A stretch of 64,000 nucleotides of DNA, taken from an uncultured virus (IMG/VR IMGVR_UViG_3300016464_000385) (lineage: Duplodnaviria > Heunggongvirae > Uroviricota > Caudoviricetes). The first letter of the stretch is position 1, and each line of letters begins with the position of its first letter. Positions 10,452-35,914 of the stretch are shown here, one piece after another. A model generated the notes under the pieces. It saw nothing but the letters and a program-made list of their open reading frames with translations. It did no database searches and was not told where the DNA came from. The position numbers and the translations under genes are program-made. The stretch lies in the IMG/VR virus record IMGVR_UViG_3300016464_000385, one strand, 5' to 3'.

Positions 10452-13184
10452 TTATAGAACTAAAGTATTGAAATCAACTCCAGATTTAGATGCTATAAAG
10501 TTCAATTGGATGAAATTAATAGATCTAGCTGGTTTAATGTAAATATCTGCAATAAATCCGTTTGAATCTATTACAGAATCGGTATTGTTACTTTCGTCAC
10601 AAACAACTCTGAAATCGTAAATACCTCTTCTGCCTTGAACATCTCTCAAGAAAGGTTCTACGATAGAAACGAATCTTGCTCTTGTATAAGAATCATTCAT
10701 TTCAAACATTTGGAGTTTTGCTGCTCTGGAAATAGTTTTTTCTAGAGTTAAGAACAATCTTCTTACGTTTATTCTATCGAAAGCGCTGACTTTATTATAA
10801 AGCATTTTATCTCCAAATAATAAAGTTCCTTCGCCGGTTTGATATATTACTGGATTAACACCCTTTCTGTATAGAAGATCTCTATTAGTTTTATCAGCGT
10901 TCCAACCCAATTTGGTTACGTTCATGATTTTTCCTCTAGTATATCCTGCTGGAGAATACCAAGGGTCTTGATTTTTATCAGTTCTTGAACATAAACCTGC
11001 AATATCGCCGTTTAAAGGAATCCAGCGATAAATTTTCATCTTAGGATCATATTGATATTTCCAATTGTTATCCATAAAGACATAAGAAGAACTTATACCT
11101 AAATTAGAAACATAATTTAGGATATCATCAGATTCTGATCCATCGTTATCTATAACGTCTCCTGATTTTGGAGAAATAAACATGACGCAATCTTTACGTT
11201 TATCTACAACATTATCAAAAACGTAATTAATCAAAGTCGTATTAGAACTATATCCGCCAGTTAATACTAAATCATAATCATAATTTTCAGCAGATTTTAT
11301 AGAATCCCATCCGTCAATTATTTTAGAAGTATCTGGAGAAGAATTATATCCGCCATTGAAAGATAGATAAACATTATCGGTTTTAGCGAAATTAATTACT
11401 TCATCAATCTTTTTACCCCAAGTTAATTCAGTATTTTTTTGATCTATAAAATCAGAAGCATATATGTAGTCTGAATATTGGTTTATATAATCAACATAAT
11501 AATAATTTCTTCCGTTTGGACCAATTACATCAGAACCTTTGGATAAAGCTGTGAACTTTTCTAATACAGTTCCTGGACTTCCTGTGAACAATCCTTTGCT
11601 ATCTATGACAACAATATGTAATTCGTCGTCTTGTCCATAAATTTCATTAGAAGAATCAGAATAAATTCTATCTTCAACATATTGAGAAGTTCCAGGAGCT
11701 TCGTCGAATAAAGAAGAATAGTCAAAATTAGTCGTCGGGTCTATCCAGCTAGTAAATTTTGCTGAAGAAGAGCAAACGCTAACTCTAATCGAATCTCCCA
11801 TTTTACCAGGATATCTTGCTACGAAAGGACCATACTTAGAATAAGCATCGTTATTAAATATATTTTTAGAATTAAAATCATCAATATTTTTTATGTATAA
11901 ATCGCTGGTATAAGCAACAGATTTAAACGATAATTGTTCTCCGGCAGTTACAGCAATAGGTAGAGTTTCTTGCAATAATACGGAAACGTTGCTTCCGTCG
12001 TTAGTAGCATCTAATACAGTGCCAAGAAGAATTTCTGTGGATAATCTTGCAGTTGTATCATTACTAGTATATTCAGACGGCCCCGAAGTTGCTGAAATTG
12101 CTTGTTCTGCTTGAGCTCCCCACATATATAAACCTTGAGTGGTTCCGTTCCCTGCCCAATTAGTAAATACTGAATTGTTTCCTTGAATAACTCTGAATAT
12201 ATGGAAACCATTATTCGCTGAATCTTCTCCAACGACACCAGTAACAGAACATCTATACCACCCATTACCCGCTGAAGAAATTGTTGCATTATTTGCGTAA
12301 GTTCTTGCTGAACCATAGCTATAAGTATTAGCAACAGTTCCTGTGCTACTTAAAACGAAGTTAGCTCTAAAGCTTGTTCCAGTTTTTTTTGCATTATAAA
12401 GTTGCATAGCTACGTTTGTAATACCCCCAGAAGGTTTTAGATACACTGACCAGCAAATTGGTTTTGTGCTATCTAATGGATATCCTGTAATAACACCATT
12501 ATTTACAGTATATCCTTCTACTGAAATCCAAGAAGCTTGATTAGGAGCTTGCCAACGTTCAATATAATGTTGACTGACTTCGGTATTAGCTAATATTAAA
12601 TCAGAATTAGAAGAAAGATCTGGAGCTGCGGTTCCTGTACTATTAGGAACTGAGATCATCTTACTTTTCCACCAAACCAAATGATCGAATTTTTCTGTTC
12701 TCGTTAAAATATTGTTATAAGGTTTTTTATAAGCTAACATTTCAGGTATAATATTAGCAGTAAAATTATTATAACTTAAAGTGATAATATTTTCTTCTGT
12801 TGTAGCGCTTAATACTGCTGCATTAGAAGTAGTTTTTCCTTCTTTCAGAGTAGTATATATTCCAGATAATCCATAAGAATTTCTAGAAGAATCAGAAGTT
12901 TCTCTTACAACATATAATAAACTAGATCCATATCCAAGAAAATTTGAACAAGTAAAATAAGAACTGCCTATATCAGAAACTGGTAAAGTGTTTGTAGGGG
13001 ATCTAAATAGAGTTGTTAGTTGCCCAGTGCTTGATACTAAAGTTGGTTTGTGTACTGGACCCCAAGAAAATTCTCCGACAAAAGCCCCTATTGTTGGACT
13101 TCCTGGAGCCACAGTTGATTGAGTTAAATCCAATTCGTTTATTACGATACCTGGACTAACTTGGTTTATAACATTTATAGCCAT
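10452..13184 (-). CDS. gp18: Tail sheath protein (gp18), enlarged by an internal insertion
   Basis: 'SPGIVINELDLT', 'FSWGPV', 'ARYPG', 'DELHIVVID', 'PWYSPAGYTRG', 'FDRINVRRLF', 'IKPARSINFIQLNF'. Confidence 0.97.
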   Translation of the reverse strand: MAINVINQVSPGIVINELDLTQSTVAPGSPTIGAFVGEFSWGPVHKPTLVSSTGQLTTLFRSPTNTLPVSDIGSSYFTCSNFLGYGSSLLYVVRETSDSSRNSYGLSGIYTTLKEGKTTSNAAVLSATTEENIITLSYNNFTANIIPEMLAYKKPYNNILTRTEKFDHLVWWKSKMISVPNSTGTAAPDLSSNSDLILANTEVSQHYIERWQAPNQASWISVEGYTVNNGVITGYPLDSTKPICWSVYLKPSGGITNVAMQLYNAKKTGTSFRANFVLSSTGTVANTYSYGSARTYANNATISSAGNGWYRCSVTGVVGEDSANNGFHIFRVIQGNNSVFTNWAGNGTTQGLYMWGAQAEQAISATSGPSEYTSNDTTARLSTEILLGTVLDATNDGSNVSVLLQETLPIAVTAGEQLSFKSVAYTSDLYIKNIDDFNSKNIFNNDAYSKYGPFVARYPGKMGDSIRVSVCSSSAKFTSWIDPTTNFDYSSLFDEAPGTSQYVEDRIYSDSSNEIYGQDDELHIVVIDSKGLFTGSPGTVLEKFTALSKGSDVIGPNGRNYYYVDYINQYSDYIYASDFIDQKNTELTWGKKIDEVINFAKTDNVYLSFNGGYNSSPDTSKIIDGWDSIKSAENYDYDLVLTGGYSSNTTLINYVFDNVVDKRKDCVMFISPKSGDVIDNDGSESDDILNYVSNLGISSSYVFMDNNWKYQYDPKMKIYRWIPLNGDIAGLCSRTDKNQDPWYSPAGYTRGKIMNVTKLGWNADKTNRDLLYRKGVNPVIYQTGEGTLLFGDKMLYNKVSAFDRINVRRLFLTLEKTISRAAKLQMFEMNDSYTRARFVSIVEPFLRDVQGRRGIYDFRVVCDESNNTDSVIDSNGFIADIYIKPARSINFIQLNFIASKSGVDFNTLVL

Positions 13185-13231
13185 AAATCATCTTCTCCTT
13201 TATAAAAAAATGAATAAAAATATACTATTAT

Positions 13232-13239
13232 TATTTAGT
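13232..13239 (-). promoter_or_regulatory. Probable late promoter variant (ACTAAATA) for gp18
   Basis: TATTTAGT on the plus strand about 48 nt upstream of the gp18 ATG; imperfect match. Confidence 0.5.
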
Positions 13240-13259
13240 AAAATGGACTTTTTAACGAC

Positions 13260-13267
13260 TATAAATA
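13260..13267 (+). promoter_or_regulatory. Late promoter TATAAATA pointing into a region with no credible ORF
   Basis: Exact consensus match on the plus strand, divergent from gp18. Confidence 0.7.
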
Positions 13268-13271
13268 ATAT

Positions 13272-13650
13272 AACATAAAGACGACTTGCGTTCGATTTTA
13301 TCGTTCGAAAAATCTAGTACGCCGCCGAAATACCTACCTTTCGGTCAAGAGGACCATTTTTGTATCCTTCCGTAGCCAATCGGTAAATCCTCCTAGACAA
13401 GGAAAACTATTCGAAGGTCGAGGTTTCCTATTGTCAAAAAAAAGAATATATATTTTAATAATTGTTCTGTGTGTTATTAAAATATGCCGCTGGGATACGC
13501 ATAGCAGCAGTAAAAGGTACAGCCCAACCGCCAATTCCTATAAATTAGGTTTGCTTACAGAAAATTCGAATATGGCTCCGTTTAGCATAAAAAGAGAATA
13601 CTTTGTCCGAACTAGGGCATAGTATTCTCCATTCACCGTTTAGCAACGTT
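13272..13650 (+). ncRNA. Candidate large structured non-coding RNA, family not identified
   Basis: About 39% GC by hand count (144/370 over 13281-13650) in an otherwise very AT-rich intergenic context; at least five stems, a possible loop-distal pseudoknot pairing, an upstream late promoter, and no convincing ORF. Confidence 0.65.
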
Positions 13651-13653
13651 TAA

Positions 13654-15360
13654 TTAAAACATAGTTCCATTATTATCAAAAAATGAACTAAGAAATTCAT
13701 CATATGAAGTTTTTGAATTACCAAAAACCCAAACAGAATCATCTTCTATGAAATGAGGAATTTCTCTTCCATTAGTTGGAGAAATAACAGGTAAGTTTTC
13801 TTCATCCGGTACTTCAAAATGTTCAGCTTGTAATTGTTTCCTTAGATCATGTTCTAATATATCTTTAAATACTTTTTGTGTTGATAACCATCCGAATAAT
13901 ACTAGAGTCATTGCTAAATCATCATTACAACCTTCTTCAGCTTTATATGATGGTCCTTCTTGAACAAATGTTGTTAATTCAGATATTGTTTCAAAATCGT
14001 TTATTACAAGTTTATCGTTTTCTATTAAAGTTTTTAACATTGAACAACCGATTCGTTTTACTAATGGAGTCATTTTAACTCCTGAGGCAGTATTTTTACC
14101 CCATTGTAAACAAACTTGTTGAGCTTTCTTATTACCAGATTTTACTCTAAATACATTTTCATATCCTAGATCTTCTATTAATACATCTGCTACTTGAGGA
14201 GTATTATTTACTTCAATTAGTACAAATGCATTATTATAATATTCTGCGCTTGCTTTAATTACAGAAGGATATAATATAGTTGGGATAGAATTATTTCTAT
14301 ATACAGCAACTTGTTTATAAGGCATACAAGAAACATCAATAACAGAAAATGCAGAATAATCTAAATTTTTACCTTCAGATACATCTACGTTAATAACATA
14401 TACATGTTCTTTAGTTTCTAATTTACCTGTATATTCATCATACGTTTCTTTTACTGGTTCTTCATAAACAATCATATCAGAATATTCTGTTAATTGTTCT
14501 TTATAAGGCAGAGAAGCTAATTTTTCTCCGGAAATAAGAGTATTTGTTGAACCTAAAAATTCGCATTCAAATTCTTGATTCCATTGCCTTTGGCTTGTAT
14601 TCTTGATCGTTTGTTCTTTAAACTTTTCATCTCTTCCTGGAACCATTGACCAATGAATACTAAACGTATTATATTCATTTCTTTTCGCCAGAGCATCAGT
14701 CCACATTTTATAGAATAGATTCATACCGTTTGGAGTAGAAACGATAATCATCTTAGTGGTTTTACCCGATGATATTACGGGATAGACAGAGGTAAAGAAG
14801 TTTTCTGCGATACTATTAGGAACGAATCCAAATTCATCAAGAAATACTAGAGTAAAAGATCCTCCTCGGATAGCATTAGAGGAAGTTGCTGATGCTAATA
14901 CTTTTGATCCATTTTCCAATTCTATATTACGTTTATTCCATACTTTAATTCCTTGTTGAAGCCACATAGGAAGATTTTCGTATGCTAATTGGTATCTATC
15001 TAGAATTTCCTGCGCAAGATCTCCTTTATTCGCAAGAATAGCAATATTTTGATCTGGGTTAAATAGAGACAACCATAATATATACGAAACAGAAGAAATT
15101 GTTTTACCAACCTGTCGAGGACATTTAACAATACTGAATCTGTTATTGTTAAAAGTGTTGATCATATCTCTCTGGAAATCCCACATATCAAAAGGAATTA
15201 CGCCTCTATCAACATGGACGATTTTCACATAATTTTCTATGAAGTATATTGGATCATTAGAACATTTAATATATTCAGATAATTGATCTTCATTGAATTC
15301 AAATTGAACCCCCTCTCTTTTTAATAGAGGATTAGCGCGATAGGAACTTTCTACCGTCAT
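13654..15360 (-). CDS. gp17: Terminase large subunit (gp17)
   Basis: 'CPRQVGKT' Walker A, 'LVFLDEFGF' Walker B, 'IIVSTPNG', nuclease acidic motifs 'VDVSEG..LDYS' and 'NDDLAM'. Confidence 0.98.
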   Translation of the reverse strand: MTVESSYRANPLLKREGVQFEFNEDQLSEYIKCSNDPIYFIENYVKIVHVDRGVIPFDMWDFQRDMINTFNNNRFSIVKCPRQVGKTISSVSYILWLSLFNPDQNIAILANKGDLAQEILDRYQLAYENLPMWLQQGIKVWNKRNIELENGSKVLASATSSNAIRGGSFTLVFLDEFGFVPNSIAENFFTSVYPVISSGKTTKMIIVSTPNGMNLFYKMWTDALAKRNEYNTFSIHWSMVPGRDEKFKEQTIKNTSQRQWNQEFECEFLGSTNTLISGEKLASLPYKEQLTEYSDMIVYEEPVKETYDEYTGKLETKEHVYVINVDVSEGKNLDYSAFSVIDVSCMPYKQVAVYRNNSIPTILYPSVIKASAEYYNNAFVLIEVNNTPQVADVLIEDLGYENVFRVKSGNKKAQQVCLQWGKNTASGVKMTPLVKRIGCSMLKTLIENDKLVINDFETISELTTFVQEGPSYKAEEGCNDDLAMTLVLFGWLSTQKVFKDILEHDLRKQLQAEHFEVPDEENLPVISPTNGREIPHFIEDDSVWVFGNSKTSYDEFLSSFFDNNGTMF

Positions 15361-33107: not shown

Positions 33108-35914
33108 TTATATTGTTATCGACGTTCTTATAATTTTTGTATTACTAGCAGTATTGGCTACTGGTGTTATCAATAGCTGTACATCGGTCGAAGAAATTGT
33201 TGAATCAAAACTAGCTAATGCGCTACCGGAAGTAAATATAGTTCCGTATTCAGTTATATAAGAATTTTCTCCGTCTTGTATCAATAGTATTTCCGTGGAT
33301 TGATACGAAGTATTTGTAGAAAATTGCACCAAATATTTACAAGATCTGAATTGCGTATTGGAAAACGAATCCAATATTTGATTTGATGTGTTTGTTCTAA
33401 GGTTTATAGTGTTACAGAAAATAACGCTATTGTTTAAAGTTAAAGTATCAGAAACAGTCAAATTCTTTGTTGATACGTTTGATGTGAACGTAGAAGAATT
33501 TGCTGTTATAATATTAGAAAATAGCGTACTGGTATTAACGCTAGTATTGGCTTGGACAGTGTTTAAAGTCAAAGCTGAAGCAAATATAGAATTAGTGCTT
33601 ATTCTATTATTTGCAACAACAAATCCAGAAGTAATACTGTTGGCAAAGATCGAATTAGTGCTTACGCTAGTATTGGCTTGGACAGTGTTTAAAGTCAAAG
33701 CAGAAGCAAATATAGAATTTGTACTTACACTATTGTTAGCAACAACAAATCCAGAAGTAATACTATTAGCAAATGCTGAATTAGTGCTTACACTAGTATT
33801 GGCTTGGACAGTGTTTAAAGTTAAAGCTGAAGCAAATATAGAATTTGTACTTACACTAGTATTGGCTTGGACAGTGTTTAAAGTTAAAGCTGAAGCAAAT
33901 ATAGAATTTGTACTTACACTAGTATTGGCTTGGACAGTGTTTAAAGTCAAAGCAGAAGCAAATATAGAATTTGTACTTACACTATTGTTAGCTTGGACGG
34001 TGTTCAAAGTTAAAGCTGAAGCAAAGATCGAATTAGTGCTTACACTAGTATTGGCCTGAATTGTGTTTAACGTTAATGCTGAAGCAAAGATCGAATTAGT
34101 GCTTATTCTATTATTTGCAACAACAAATCCAGAAGTAATACTATTAGCAAATGCTGAATTCGTACTTACGCTAGTGTTAGCAACAACAAATCCGGAAGTG
34201 ATACTATTAGCAAATACTGAACTGGTACTTAAGCTAGTGTTAGCAACAACAAATTCTGAAGTAATGCTATTGATAAAAGCAGAATTCGTACTTATGCTAG
34301 TATTGGCCTGAATTGTGTTTAACGTTAATGCTGAAGCAAAAATGGAATTTGTACTTACACTATTATTAGCAACAACAAATCCGGAAGNNNNNNNNNNNNN
34401 NNNNNNNNNNNNNNNNNNNNNNNNNNNNNNNNNNNNNNNNNNNNNNNNNNNNNNNNNNNNNNNNNNNNNNNNNNNNNNNNNNNNNNNNNNNNNNNNNNNN
34501 NNNNNNNNNNNNNNNNNNNNNNNNNNNNNNNNNNNNNNNNNNNNNNNNNNNNNNNNNNNNNNNNNNNNNNNNNNNNNNNNNNNNNNNNNNNNNNNNNNNN
34601 NNGAATTGAGTTCAAAGTCAAAGCAGAAGCAAATATAGAATTTGTACTTACGCTGGTATTTGCGACAACAAATCCAGAAGTAATACTATTAGCAAAGATC
34701 GAATTAGTGCTTACGCTAGTATTGGCTTGGACGGTGTTTAAAGTCAAAGCAGAAGCAAAGATCGAATTAGTGCTTACGCTGGTATTTGCGACAACAAATC
34801 CTGATGTGATACTACTAGCAAAAATGGAATTAGTGCTTACGCTAGTATTGGCTTGAATTGTGTTCAAAGTCAAAGCTGAAGCAAATATAGAATTAGTGCT
34901 TATTCTGTTGTTAGCAACAACAAATCCGGAAGTGATGCTATTAGCAAATACTGAATTCGTACTTACACTATTGTTGGCTTGAATTGTGTTTAAAGTCAAA
35001 GCAGAAGCAAAGATCGAATTCGTACTTACGCTAGTATTGGCCTGGACAGTGTTTAAAGTCAAAGCAGAAGCAAAGATCGAATTCGTACTTACGCTAGTAT
35101 TGGCTTGAATTGTGTTTAAAGTCAAAGCAGAAGCAAAGATCGAATTCGTACTTACACTATTGTTGGCTTGAATTGTGTTTAACGTTAATGCTGAAGCAAA
35201 AATGGAATTGGTGCTTACGCTAGTATTGGCCTGGACAGTGTTTAACGTTAATGCTGAAGCAAAAATTGAATTCGTACTTACGCTGGTATTAGCAACAACA
35301 AATCCAGAAGTAATACTATTAGCAAATACAGAGATTGTAGATACATAAGTATTAGCTTTGATATAATCTGTCAACATATTTAATGCTGATATTTGATCGC
35401 TGGATCCTAAAGTATATGTGCTAGTAATTCCTTGTAAAACAGTATTACCGGATATTAATAAAGTTCTTCCTATTAAACTATTGGCATTAGCGGTTCCATA
35501 AATATTTACATTATTATTAAAAGAAGAATTTCCCGAAACCAACAGAGAATTTTGAGTATTAGATAAATGTAGATAATTTATTCTACTTAATCCGCTTGCA
35601 TCTAAAGAATAAATCGTATTATTAGAGTTTGTTAGATATAAAGTTTTTCCTACTTCTGCATTATTCTGTACATATAAACCGCTGCCTATTCCTTGGATAT
35701 CGGTTTCGTTTGTAAACAAAGCTCTTGCATCAGATTGTAATCCGTATACATTAGGATCGCCGCTATCGGCAAAAATTAAAGAGCCAGAGGGTTTGATCCA
35801 TTCATCAAACCCTAGCCCGTTAATACTATTGATCATATTATCGGTAGCTCTTATTAGATCTCCGAATGTATTTGAAGCGTATATATTAGAAAGATATGTT
35901 GGAGTAATTGCCAT
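33108..35914 (-). CDS. Repeat-rich fibre-like virion protein; a single gene spanning the assembly gap
   Basis: Identical 21-aa repeats read open on both sides of the N run; N-terminal 'NTFGDL..ATD' anchor-like motif; C-terminal 'DSF...RSCKYLVQ...TEYG' domain typical of T4-like virion proteins. Confidence 0.8.
33530..35360 (-). repeat. 63-bp (21-aa) tandem repeat array with two unit types
   Basis: Period 63 measured (34988 to 35051); units ANTSVSTNSIFASALTLNTVQ and ANTSVSTNSIFANSITSGFVV; about 25 sequenced units plus the gap. Confidence 0.95.
34388..34602. other. Assembly gap (215 N) inside the repeat array
   Basis: Run of N; true length is uncertain. Confidence 1.

Follow-up and report, generated by a model that had tools for sequence, protein, structure and literature searches.

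The nearest analogues in kind of the RNA described here are GOLLD and ROOL, which are likewise large, intricately folded RNAs of phages and mobile DNA that are not tied to one neighbouring gene. Both are phage or prophage RNAs of 500-800 nucleotides (nt) represented in Rfam. Our subject is encoded in a stretch of 64,000 nt from an uncultured tailed phage (IMG/VR record IMGVR_UViG_3300016464_000385), which as a whole we call the window. We propose that positions 13260-13645 (plus strand) are an autonomous gene for a structured RNA of ~370 nt, a divergent member of an unnamed, mainly aquatic family of RNAs from T4-like myophages, and we put the probability of this reading at roughly 0.65. Compared with GOLLD and ROOL, the RNA is smaller (~300-400 nt), has a different architecture and no covariance-model match to either, and is carried by aquatic T4-like myophages. 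Another structured RNA gene is known from this broad phage group: PMC9004378 describes a two-piece transfer-messenger RNA (tmRNA) with a glnA riboswitch in Melnitz-like and pelagimyophage T4-like phages. The present RNA is distinct from it, because ARAGORN, run on the window and on 40 family loci, reports neither a tRNA nor a tmRNA, Rfam yields no tmRNA or glnA match, and Melnitz lacks this RNA beside its GIY-YIG gene.

The family is new, in that it is unnamed and lies outside Rfam 15. At gathering scores Rfam 15 gives no match on the window or on 20 family loci, at E<=0.1 it gives none on 20 further family loci, and at E<=10 the gap that holds the RNA returns just six chance-level matches, all on the minus strand. 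A reading made earlier from the letters of the window (the sequence-only reading) had seen no hallmarks of tRNA, tmRNA, RNase P or group I/II introns here, in agreement with the Rfam and ARAGORN results. A blastn search of the gap and three family members against ~50,000 GenBank phage records returned only a 39-nt match (E 0.5). Full-text literature searches brought up no description of the RNA; a 2023 catalogue of ~10,000 unnamed structured-RNA candidates from viral contigs, whose large alignments lie outside the searchable text (PMC10690425), may list it.

What carries our proposal is comparison with relatives. The sequence-only reading had suggested that a similar motif occurs in other uncultured large phages, and this is correct: the exact 17-mer core GGTACAGCCCAACCGCC occurs in 20 viral-contig loci, 17 of them related through flanking similarity and three being chance matches in GC-rich sequence. 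A degenerate core pattern retrieves at least 120 loci, and a family hidden Markov model (HMM) matches 115 among the 120 listed. When pattern loci are pooled with loci found through a neighbouring PD-(D/E)xK nuclease gene, 152 match the HMM at E<1e-6; these amount to 98 distinct sequences and 59 representatives at under 93% identity. Members of the family thus number more than a hundred in aquatic phage contigs, plus one in a bacterial genomic island. The covariance model R1 (122 positions, 27 pairs), built from an alignment of the core (A5) with the window left out, matches the window exactly once when both strands of the 64 kb are searched; the match lies on the plus strand, covers 13446-13571 and takes in the whole length of the model (34.4 bits, E 1.4e-5). 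A sequence-only HMM, likewise built without the window, finds only 13511-13557 (E 9e-7).

Alignment A5 comprises 58 non-redundant representatives and excludes both the window and its twin. From it RNAalifold, unaided, picked as the best helix a pairing between a hairpin loop and a strand far downstream, which is the family counterpart of the TTCTGT:ACAGAA pseudoknot that the sequence-only reading had suggested by eye. We evaluated a model of nine helices (seven nested and two pseudoknots) against controls in which pairing partners were slid by 1-3 columns. Standard pairs fill 89.0% of cells in the 58 sequences as opposed to 34-48% with slid partners, 517 cells are changed on both sides as opposed to 71-116, and the covariation score is 0.549 as opposed to 0.08-0.17. 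None of 500 column shuffles attains the observed values. MAFFT shifts some rows of A5 by one column, and the pairing counts are, if anything, conservative. Covariation in homologues, which the sequence-only reading had named as one check of its fold, is found across 58 relatives for the 12-bp hairpin, the pseudoknot, CCTA/TAGG and the core.

These comparisons establish a predicted core fold (13446-13571), the first element of which is a hairpin whose loop would pair with a strand ~90 nt downstream (pseudoknot 1). In the window this is a 12-bp hairpin at 13450-13485 (H4), read directly in the sequence; its family equivalents (helices 2 and 3) covary and are 91% and 83% paired. Its loop strand TTCTGT (13465-13470) is fully complementary to ACAGAA (13557-13562), and the corresponding family helix (helix 4) shows both-side changes at 7/7 pairs, with 90.6% of cells paired, making it the best-covarying helix of the family. 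The second element is a predicted three-way junction, which presents a near-invariant 13-nt loop that in most relatives would kiss the loop of the preceding hairpin, H5 (pseudoknot 2). The cmsearch alignment to R1 places the closing helix of this junction, around H6 and H7, at 13506-13509/13552-13555 in the window (the junction as a whole spanning 13506-13555), and in the family this helix (helix 7) has both-side changes at 4/4 pairs. H6, the short stem that presents the near-invariant loop, lies at 13510-13536 and includes the core GGTACAGCCCAACCGCC at 13516-13532; the somewhat longer conserved stretch read by eye is present at 13512-13532. Three of the six H6 stem pairs form in the window, and the family stem (helix 8) is 96.6% paired, with covariation. 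H7 follows as a CCTA/TAGG hairpin at 13537-13549, read in the sequence; its family helix (helix 9) covaries, with 95% paired and both-side changes at 2/3 pairs, and its loop carries insertions of ~30 nt in some relatives. Pseudoknot 2 itself (helix 6) joins the first bases of the H5 loop to a variable dinucleotide and the adjoining AAC within the near-invariant H6 loop; it is 94.5% paired in the family, with covariation at its two variable pairs.

Which strand is folded can be told from the wobble pairs. U-G is found in 58/58 sequences at one pair and in 40/58 at another, bearing out the observation in the sequence-only reading that several G-U pairs work on the plus strand only. Because of these invariant or common U-G and G-U pairs, and because R1 matches on the plus strand only, we conclude that the folded strand is the plus strand.

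Downstream of the core, the 3' part consists of two hairpins and a 10-nt motif that occurs twice, 58 nt apart. The putative H8 equivalent (13571-13589; six base pairs and one bulge), read in the sequence, corresponds in position to a variable hairpin of the family. The H9-like long hairpin GAGAATACT/AGTATTCTC (13594-13629) appears in both the minimum-free-energy (MFE) and the centroid folds; its inner part is similar to the family hairpin and its outer 9 bp are specific to the window lineage. In the family, both-side changes in H9 are few (3/6 pairs, 14 cells), and 33 cells are changed on one side, largely between G-U and A-U. The duplicated motif CCGTTTAGCA is present as two exact copies, at 13578-13587 within the H8-like hairpin and at 13636-13645, and these are its only matches in the window at up to one mismatch. 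Since the second copy lies there, the RNA extends to 13645 or further; that position is 8 nt from the stop codon of the adjoining terminase gene. The arrangement is shared by relatives: a lineage-specific repeat of at least 7 nt is found at the same two places, one in the variable 3' hairpin and one in the tail, in 32/57 representatives (swapped-tail control: mean 4.4, maximum 11), with a spacing of 49-66 nt. MAFFT aligns the variable 3' hairpin badly, and the 3' domain is outside R1. A pairing of the motif with a fixed site in the 5' domain was unsupported (paired fraction 0.865 for a sequence's own motif and 0.838 for that of another sequence), and the window holds no complementary target of the motif elsewhere.

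Some further features of the family were seen by eye. In alignment A4 the strands before H8 and after H9 change together (TGTG/GTGTGA, TGCG/GTGCGA, TACG/GTACGA), which would fit a helix whose tandem G-U is replaced by G-C or A-C. The tetranucleotide TGAC recurs in three loops of many members (the 5' hairpin, the H3 inner loop and H8) and is absent from the window copy; it is possibly a repeated protein-binding motif. We also considered, and dropped, a helix between the 3' tail and the H3 loop as well as a permuted layout of the window copy, since they were drawn by eye in few sequences and did not hold across lineages.

How is this RNA gene placed in its genome? Open reading frames (ORFs) and PHROG matches identify a T4-like structural module on the minus strand of the window, comprising a gp15-like gene (16801-15794), the small terminase (15788-15357), the gp17-like large terminase subunit (15360-13654; phrog_5989, phrog_2), the gp18-like tail sheath (13184-10452; phrog_23, E 2.7e-114) and the tail tube (10438-9845). 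The terminase is at most 52% identical to the large terminase subunits of cultured cyanomyophages. The RNA occupies the gap between terminase and sheath (13185-13653). The sequence-only reading was right that this is the largest gap of a gene-dense window: it measures 469 nt, and the next-largest between ORFs of at least 80 amino acids measures 347 nt. That second gap lies at 34008-34354 and is partly covered by short plus-strand ORFs. The same reading had described a tract of ~39% GC (guanine plus cytosine) with no credible ORF, and this too holds, as we measure 38.1% in 13268-13650 compared with 32.5% in the whole window. A stop-free frame of 117 codons in the gap is interrupted in L001, a relative of 94% identity, and the ORFs of the gap have no convincing protein family (best PHROG match E 0.014).

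Of 74 relatives with both gp17 and gp18, 71 have a junction of 34-93 nt between them, and R1 finds the RNA in one of 80 terminase loci, which is the window's own twin. The ~433-nt gp17-gp18 gap of two terminase relatives (L093, L100) might have held the same RNA; this was rejected for want of an R1 match. The whole stretch is found at ~96.5% identity in DNA contigs of two other studies, and the insertion is therefore stable in the window's phage lineage; the sequencing runs that contain the stretch are labelled as freshwater, estuary, aquatic, riverine or groundwater metagenomes and belong to 11 studies. The sequence-only reading had offered a role in packaging or assembly. We find no support for this idea, because the terminase neighbourhood is peculiar to the window lineage; elsewhere the RNA lies near a nuclease gene and far from the terminase. 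The survey of terminase loci brought up a separate observation. In ten loci from ten viral contigs (L086-L099), the large-terminase match is limited to residues 1-266 (84% identity), and in the seven of these with enough DNA the C-terminal part resumes ~1.5 kb further on, so that the terminase gene looks as if it were split by an insertion such as an intein, an intron or an endonuclease gene.

The box at the beginning of the gene suggests how it might be transcribed. At 13260-13267, on the plus strand and opposite to the flanking genes, stands an exact match to the T4-type late promoter TATAAATA, as the sequence-only reading had stated; it faces the RNA and is conserved in L001. In the window as a whole TATAAATA is not over-represented (18 found, 19 expected). 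Non-ORF DNA, which makes up 3.6% of the window, holds eight of the 18 boxes, seven of which are 23-39 nt upstream of a co-oriented ORF start, and the eighth is the box at 13260. TATAAATA also precedes the baseplate-hub gene in related phages. Because of this non-ORF placement ahead of co-oriented starts, together with the hub-gene boxes, we take TATAAATA to be the late promoter of the window phage. The 13260 box is well placed to serve as the late promoter of the RNA, with its activity predicted, and the RNA is probably transcribed late in the window phage. Upstream of the sheath gene (13185-13260, minus strand) there is no exact TATAAATA and only TATAAAGG, overlapping the ribosome-binding site of that gene; sheath expression may rely on transcripts that begin in the terminase operon and read through the antisense strand of the RNA gene. 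A different motif, CTAAYAYARRC, is shared by 39 of 103 family loci (L173, L181 and L232 among them). It lies ~250-300 nt before the core, where the RNA presumably starts, and in some loci two or three similar 10-nt units stand in tandem ahead of it. The motif might represent another type of promoter or an array of binding sites.

In what we call canonical loci, the RNA is co-oriented with its neighbours and occupies one syntenic slot of T4-like myophages, after a gp46-like gene. Downstream, 9/29 loci have phrog_10325, 9/29 a baseplate hub on the opposite strand and 11/29 no recognised family; other downstream genes include a nucleotidase and phrog_34507, and in the window the RNA is followed by the antisense of the terminase. 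The RNA thus does not hold a constant position before functionally related genes, as a riboswitch or cis-acting leader would. A scan of one genome per prokaryotic species gave six pattern matches, one of them true, on the chromosome of Candidatus Njordibacter (L311). There the RNA (85.6 bits) is located in an 890-nt gap beside a serine recombinase, within an island of ~20 kb that has two tyrosine-integrase genes 8-9 kb away, an inverse autotransporter within ~9 kb and several ORFs of no family; no nuclease gene lies upstream of it. The protein downstream of this copy was considered as a relative of phrog_10325 and found to be unrelated. Across all contexts, then, the RNA is accompanied by two different nucleases or by none, has two orientations relative to its neighbours and occurs outside phages.

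Several observations weigh against our proposal as applied to the window. Its copy is divergent, with a core score of just 34 bits, and does not keep two outer pairs of H6 or the register that pseudoknot 2 has in the family: its H5 region fits R1 badly, and by eye only a shifted GGG:CCC pairing can be drawn. Judged by eye in A4, it also lacks the H3 internal-loop motif of the family and the helix that closes H8 and H9; in their place it has a simple long hairpin (13396-13435) and an H9 extended in its own way. The 5' part of the presumed transcript (13268-13445, plus strand) contains three predicted hairpins, namely GCCGAAA/TTTCGGT (13324-13330/13339-13345), GAGGA/TCCTC (13349-13353/13388-13392) and GACAAGGAAA/TTTCCTATTGTC (13396-13435). 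All three were read in the sequence and are present in the MFE fold. The stems listed by eye in the sequence-only reading are indeed all where it placed them; these three (13324-13435) have no comparative support beyond L001, as the 5' ~170 nt of the window have no detectable homologue beyond that relative. A MAFFT hint that these 170 nt are homologous to the 5' domain of the family was rejected, the HMM of that domain finding nothing in the window. Folding energy is of little help. The gap folds only moderately better than chance (z -2.37 on the plus and -2.36 on the minus strand), with one in 100 shuffles as good on either strand alike; the comparison with shuffled controls that the sequence-only reading had proposed is thus mildly favourable and does not separate the strands. 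The support for the RNA is comparative rather than thermodynamic.

Expression and autonomy raise further objections. Family members elsewhere have no TATAAATA upstream (103 loci), and the looser NATAAATA is found in at most 3/103 of them, anywhere 250-450 nt upstream of the core. Since relatives elsewhere lack the box, late expression, which the sequence-only reading had proposed and which suits the well-placed box of the window, is at most a trait of the window copy. No terminator-like site was found after the 3' end of the RNA. A 151-nt contig in one RNA-library (metatranscriptome) run is identical to 13416-13566 and is the only exact piece within 12700-14200, the uncovered parts of which are uninformative either way; it is a hint of expression, with a depth of 2.5, no strand information and a possible origin in carried-over DNA. 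That the RNA would act in trans is argued solely from its varied neighbourhoods. Finally, a small nuclease gene is located directly upstream in 28/31 diverse canonical loci, for which reason the RNA may not be autonomous there. In 25 of these 31 loci the gene encodes a GIY-YIG protein made up of that domain only (PF19835), and in 3 a PD-(D/E)xK protein (PF24608); the three loci looked at first likewise had the PD-(D/E)xK gene upstream. The GIY-YIG neighbour resembles T4 endonuclease II/SegE, and the PD-(D/E)xK neighbour is T5 D14-like.

The main rival explanation builds on this last association and holds that the RNA is a partner of the upstream nuclease (a guide, activator, inhibitor or antitoxin), the window copy being an orphan or serving a nuclease encoded elsewhere. 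Its attraction is that two unrelated nuclease folds precede one and the same RNA, and that in PD-(D/E)xK loci the sequence match begins ~45 nt inside the 3' end of the nuclease ORF, an overlap reminiscent of TnpB reRNAs. The omega (re)RNAs of TnpB and IscB are likewise encoded directly 3' of, and partly overlapping, a nuclease ORF and have a pseudoknot, but the nucleases here are GIY-YIG or PD-(D/E)xK rather than RuvC, no transposon ends or variable guide-like segment were seen, and no HEARO or omega-RNA model matches. ToxI-like type III antitoxin RNAs and phage pseudo-ToxI similarly combine a pseudoknotted RNA with a nearby nuclease gene, and phages do carry RNA mimics that defeat host systems. 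In contrast to ToxI, this RNA has no short tandem-repeat array, is a single unit of at least ~300 nt downstream of the nuclease, and accompanies folds of DNA nucleases. A partnership is further weakened by co-occurrence that is non-obligatory in both directions. Neither nuclease has a homologue in the window at E<=1e-3, and none is encoded upstream of the Njordibacter copy. Conversely, the RNA is found in just 36/80 PD-(D/E)xK loci (26 by HMM and 10 by R1 at E<0.01, the remainder giving nothing), and the cultured phages with the closest GIY-YIG genes, Melnitz, S-ShM2 and P-SSM3, show no match to it. Synteny, moreover, is not confined to the nuclease but extends to the downstream side and to the gp46-like gene upstream. 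Because of this synteny on both sides and the non-obligatory co-occurrence, the pattern can be explained by a conserved genome slot in which analogous nucleases interchange; the alternation of two unrelated nucleases in one slot looks like non-orthologous replacement. We therefore consider a nuclease partnership rather unlikely. A more specific version, in which the double-pseudoknotted RNA would be a ribonucleoprotein (RNP) subunit that programs or switches the small domain-only GIY-YIG or PD-(D/E)xK DNA nucleases, with the duplicated motif as specificity element and standalone copies as traded specificity or decoy modules, we would call unlikely. Another possibility is that the nuclease genes are of the homing type, with the conserved RNA gene as their target.

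Other explanations dispense with the nuclease. Conceivably, the insertion is a cis-acting or antisense device, whereby plus-strand transcription from TATAAATA into the terminase tunes gp17 and gp18, or the minus strand serves as a long structured leader of the sheath gene. The gap does lie between two minus-strand late genes, the RNA ends 8 nt from the terminase stop with no terminator after it, and an exact TATAAATA is missing before the sheath gene. Against this, the conserved G-U and U-G pairs and the R1 match identify the plus strand as the folded one, relatives are co-oriented with unrelated neighbours at other genome positions, and 71/74 related phages manage the junction with 34-93 nt; a 300-nt double-pseudoknot fold with invariant loops would also exceed what antisense pairing needs. 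We regard such a device as very unlikely. A mobile or self-processing ribozyme (intron-like, self-cleaving or self-ligating), for which the duplicated motif would mark processing or junction sites, seems distinctly unlikely. It would suit an element found at different insertion sites, with a lineage-specific direct repeat flanking a segment of 49-66 nt, and known ribozymes are comparable in size range and in having double-pseudoknot cores. The group I introns of T4-like phages in particular share a similar size, a pseudoknotted core and frequent GIY-YIG neighbours. In contrast to these, no host gene is interrupted: the flanks in the window are complete, and the ORFs flanking related loci belong to unrelated families, on which grounds a split-gene reading of these loci was rejected. 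Nor is there a match to Intron_gpI at permissive thresholds, or to any Rfam intron or self-cleaving model in the gap at E<=10 or in 20 loci at E<=0.1, and a repeat that evolves in concert across lineages speaks for function rather than target-site duplication. Lastly, the conserved feature might be a DNA-level site for replication, recombination or nuclease recognition and not an RNA at all. A near-invariant core of 17-24 nt beside nuclease or recombinase genes would suit a recognition site, and transcription of the RNA is itself only predicted. However, a DNA site would hardly keep nine helices, two of them long-range, paired through 517 both-side-changed cells. Because pairing is so maintained, because G-U pairing works on one strand only and because hairpin loops tolerate 30-nt insertions, the conserved entity looks like a folded single strand, and we consider a DNA site most improbable.

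What might the RNA do? The ribozyme-like and anti-defence roles that the sequence-only reading had offered are at this stage guesses. We envision a scenario whereby the RNA gene was inserted, antisense, into the normally tight terminase/sheath junction of the window phage, is transcribed there on its own from a T4-type late promoter and acts in trans as a folded molecule and does not regulate the adjacent genes in cis. Fixed in place by two pseudoknots, the unvarying nucleotides of the loops would create a pocket for binding or catalysis. The motif that occurs twice might offer a pair of like sites for base pairing or binding, through which a helix could be swapped, the RNA could dimerise, or one partner could be bound in two copies. 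To our knowledge, few large RNAs combine invariant loops with several covarying pseudoknots, and their known roles are nearly all those of ribozymes, riboswitches and RNP cores. Because the RNA changes its place in the genome and has reached a bacterial island, it probably has an independent function. The company it keeps (nucleases, recombinases and variable slots) points weakly to phage-host conflict, and since its movement among genome sites, phages and a bacterial island is not coupled to any single protein gene, we tentatively suggest a possible role in such conflict or in host takeover, a guess that we hold to be more doubtful than not.

The family resides in abundant aquatic T4-like phages, with at least 59 distinct sequences at under 93% identity. 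The alternation of nuclease folds beside it raises the question of whether a conserved RNA gene is exploited by small nucleases or is their prey. The family presents a well-defined target for structure determination and for the study of RNA-based interplay between phage and host.

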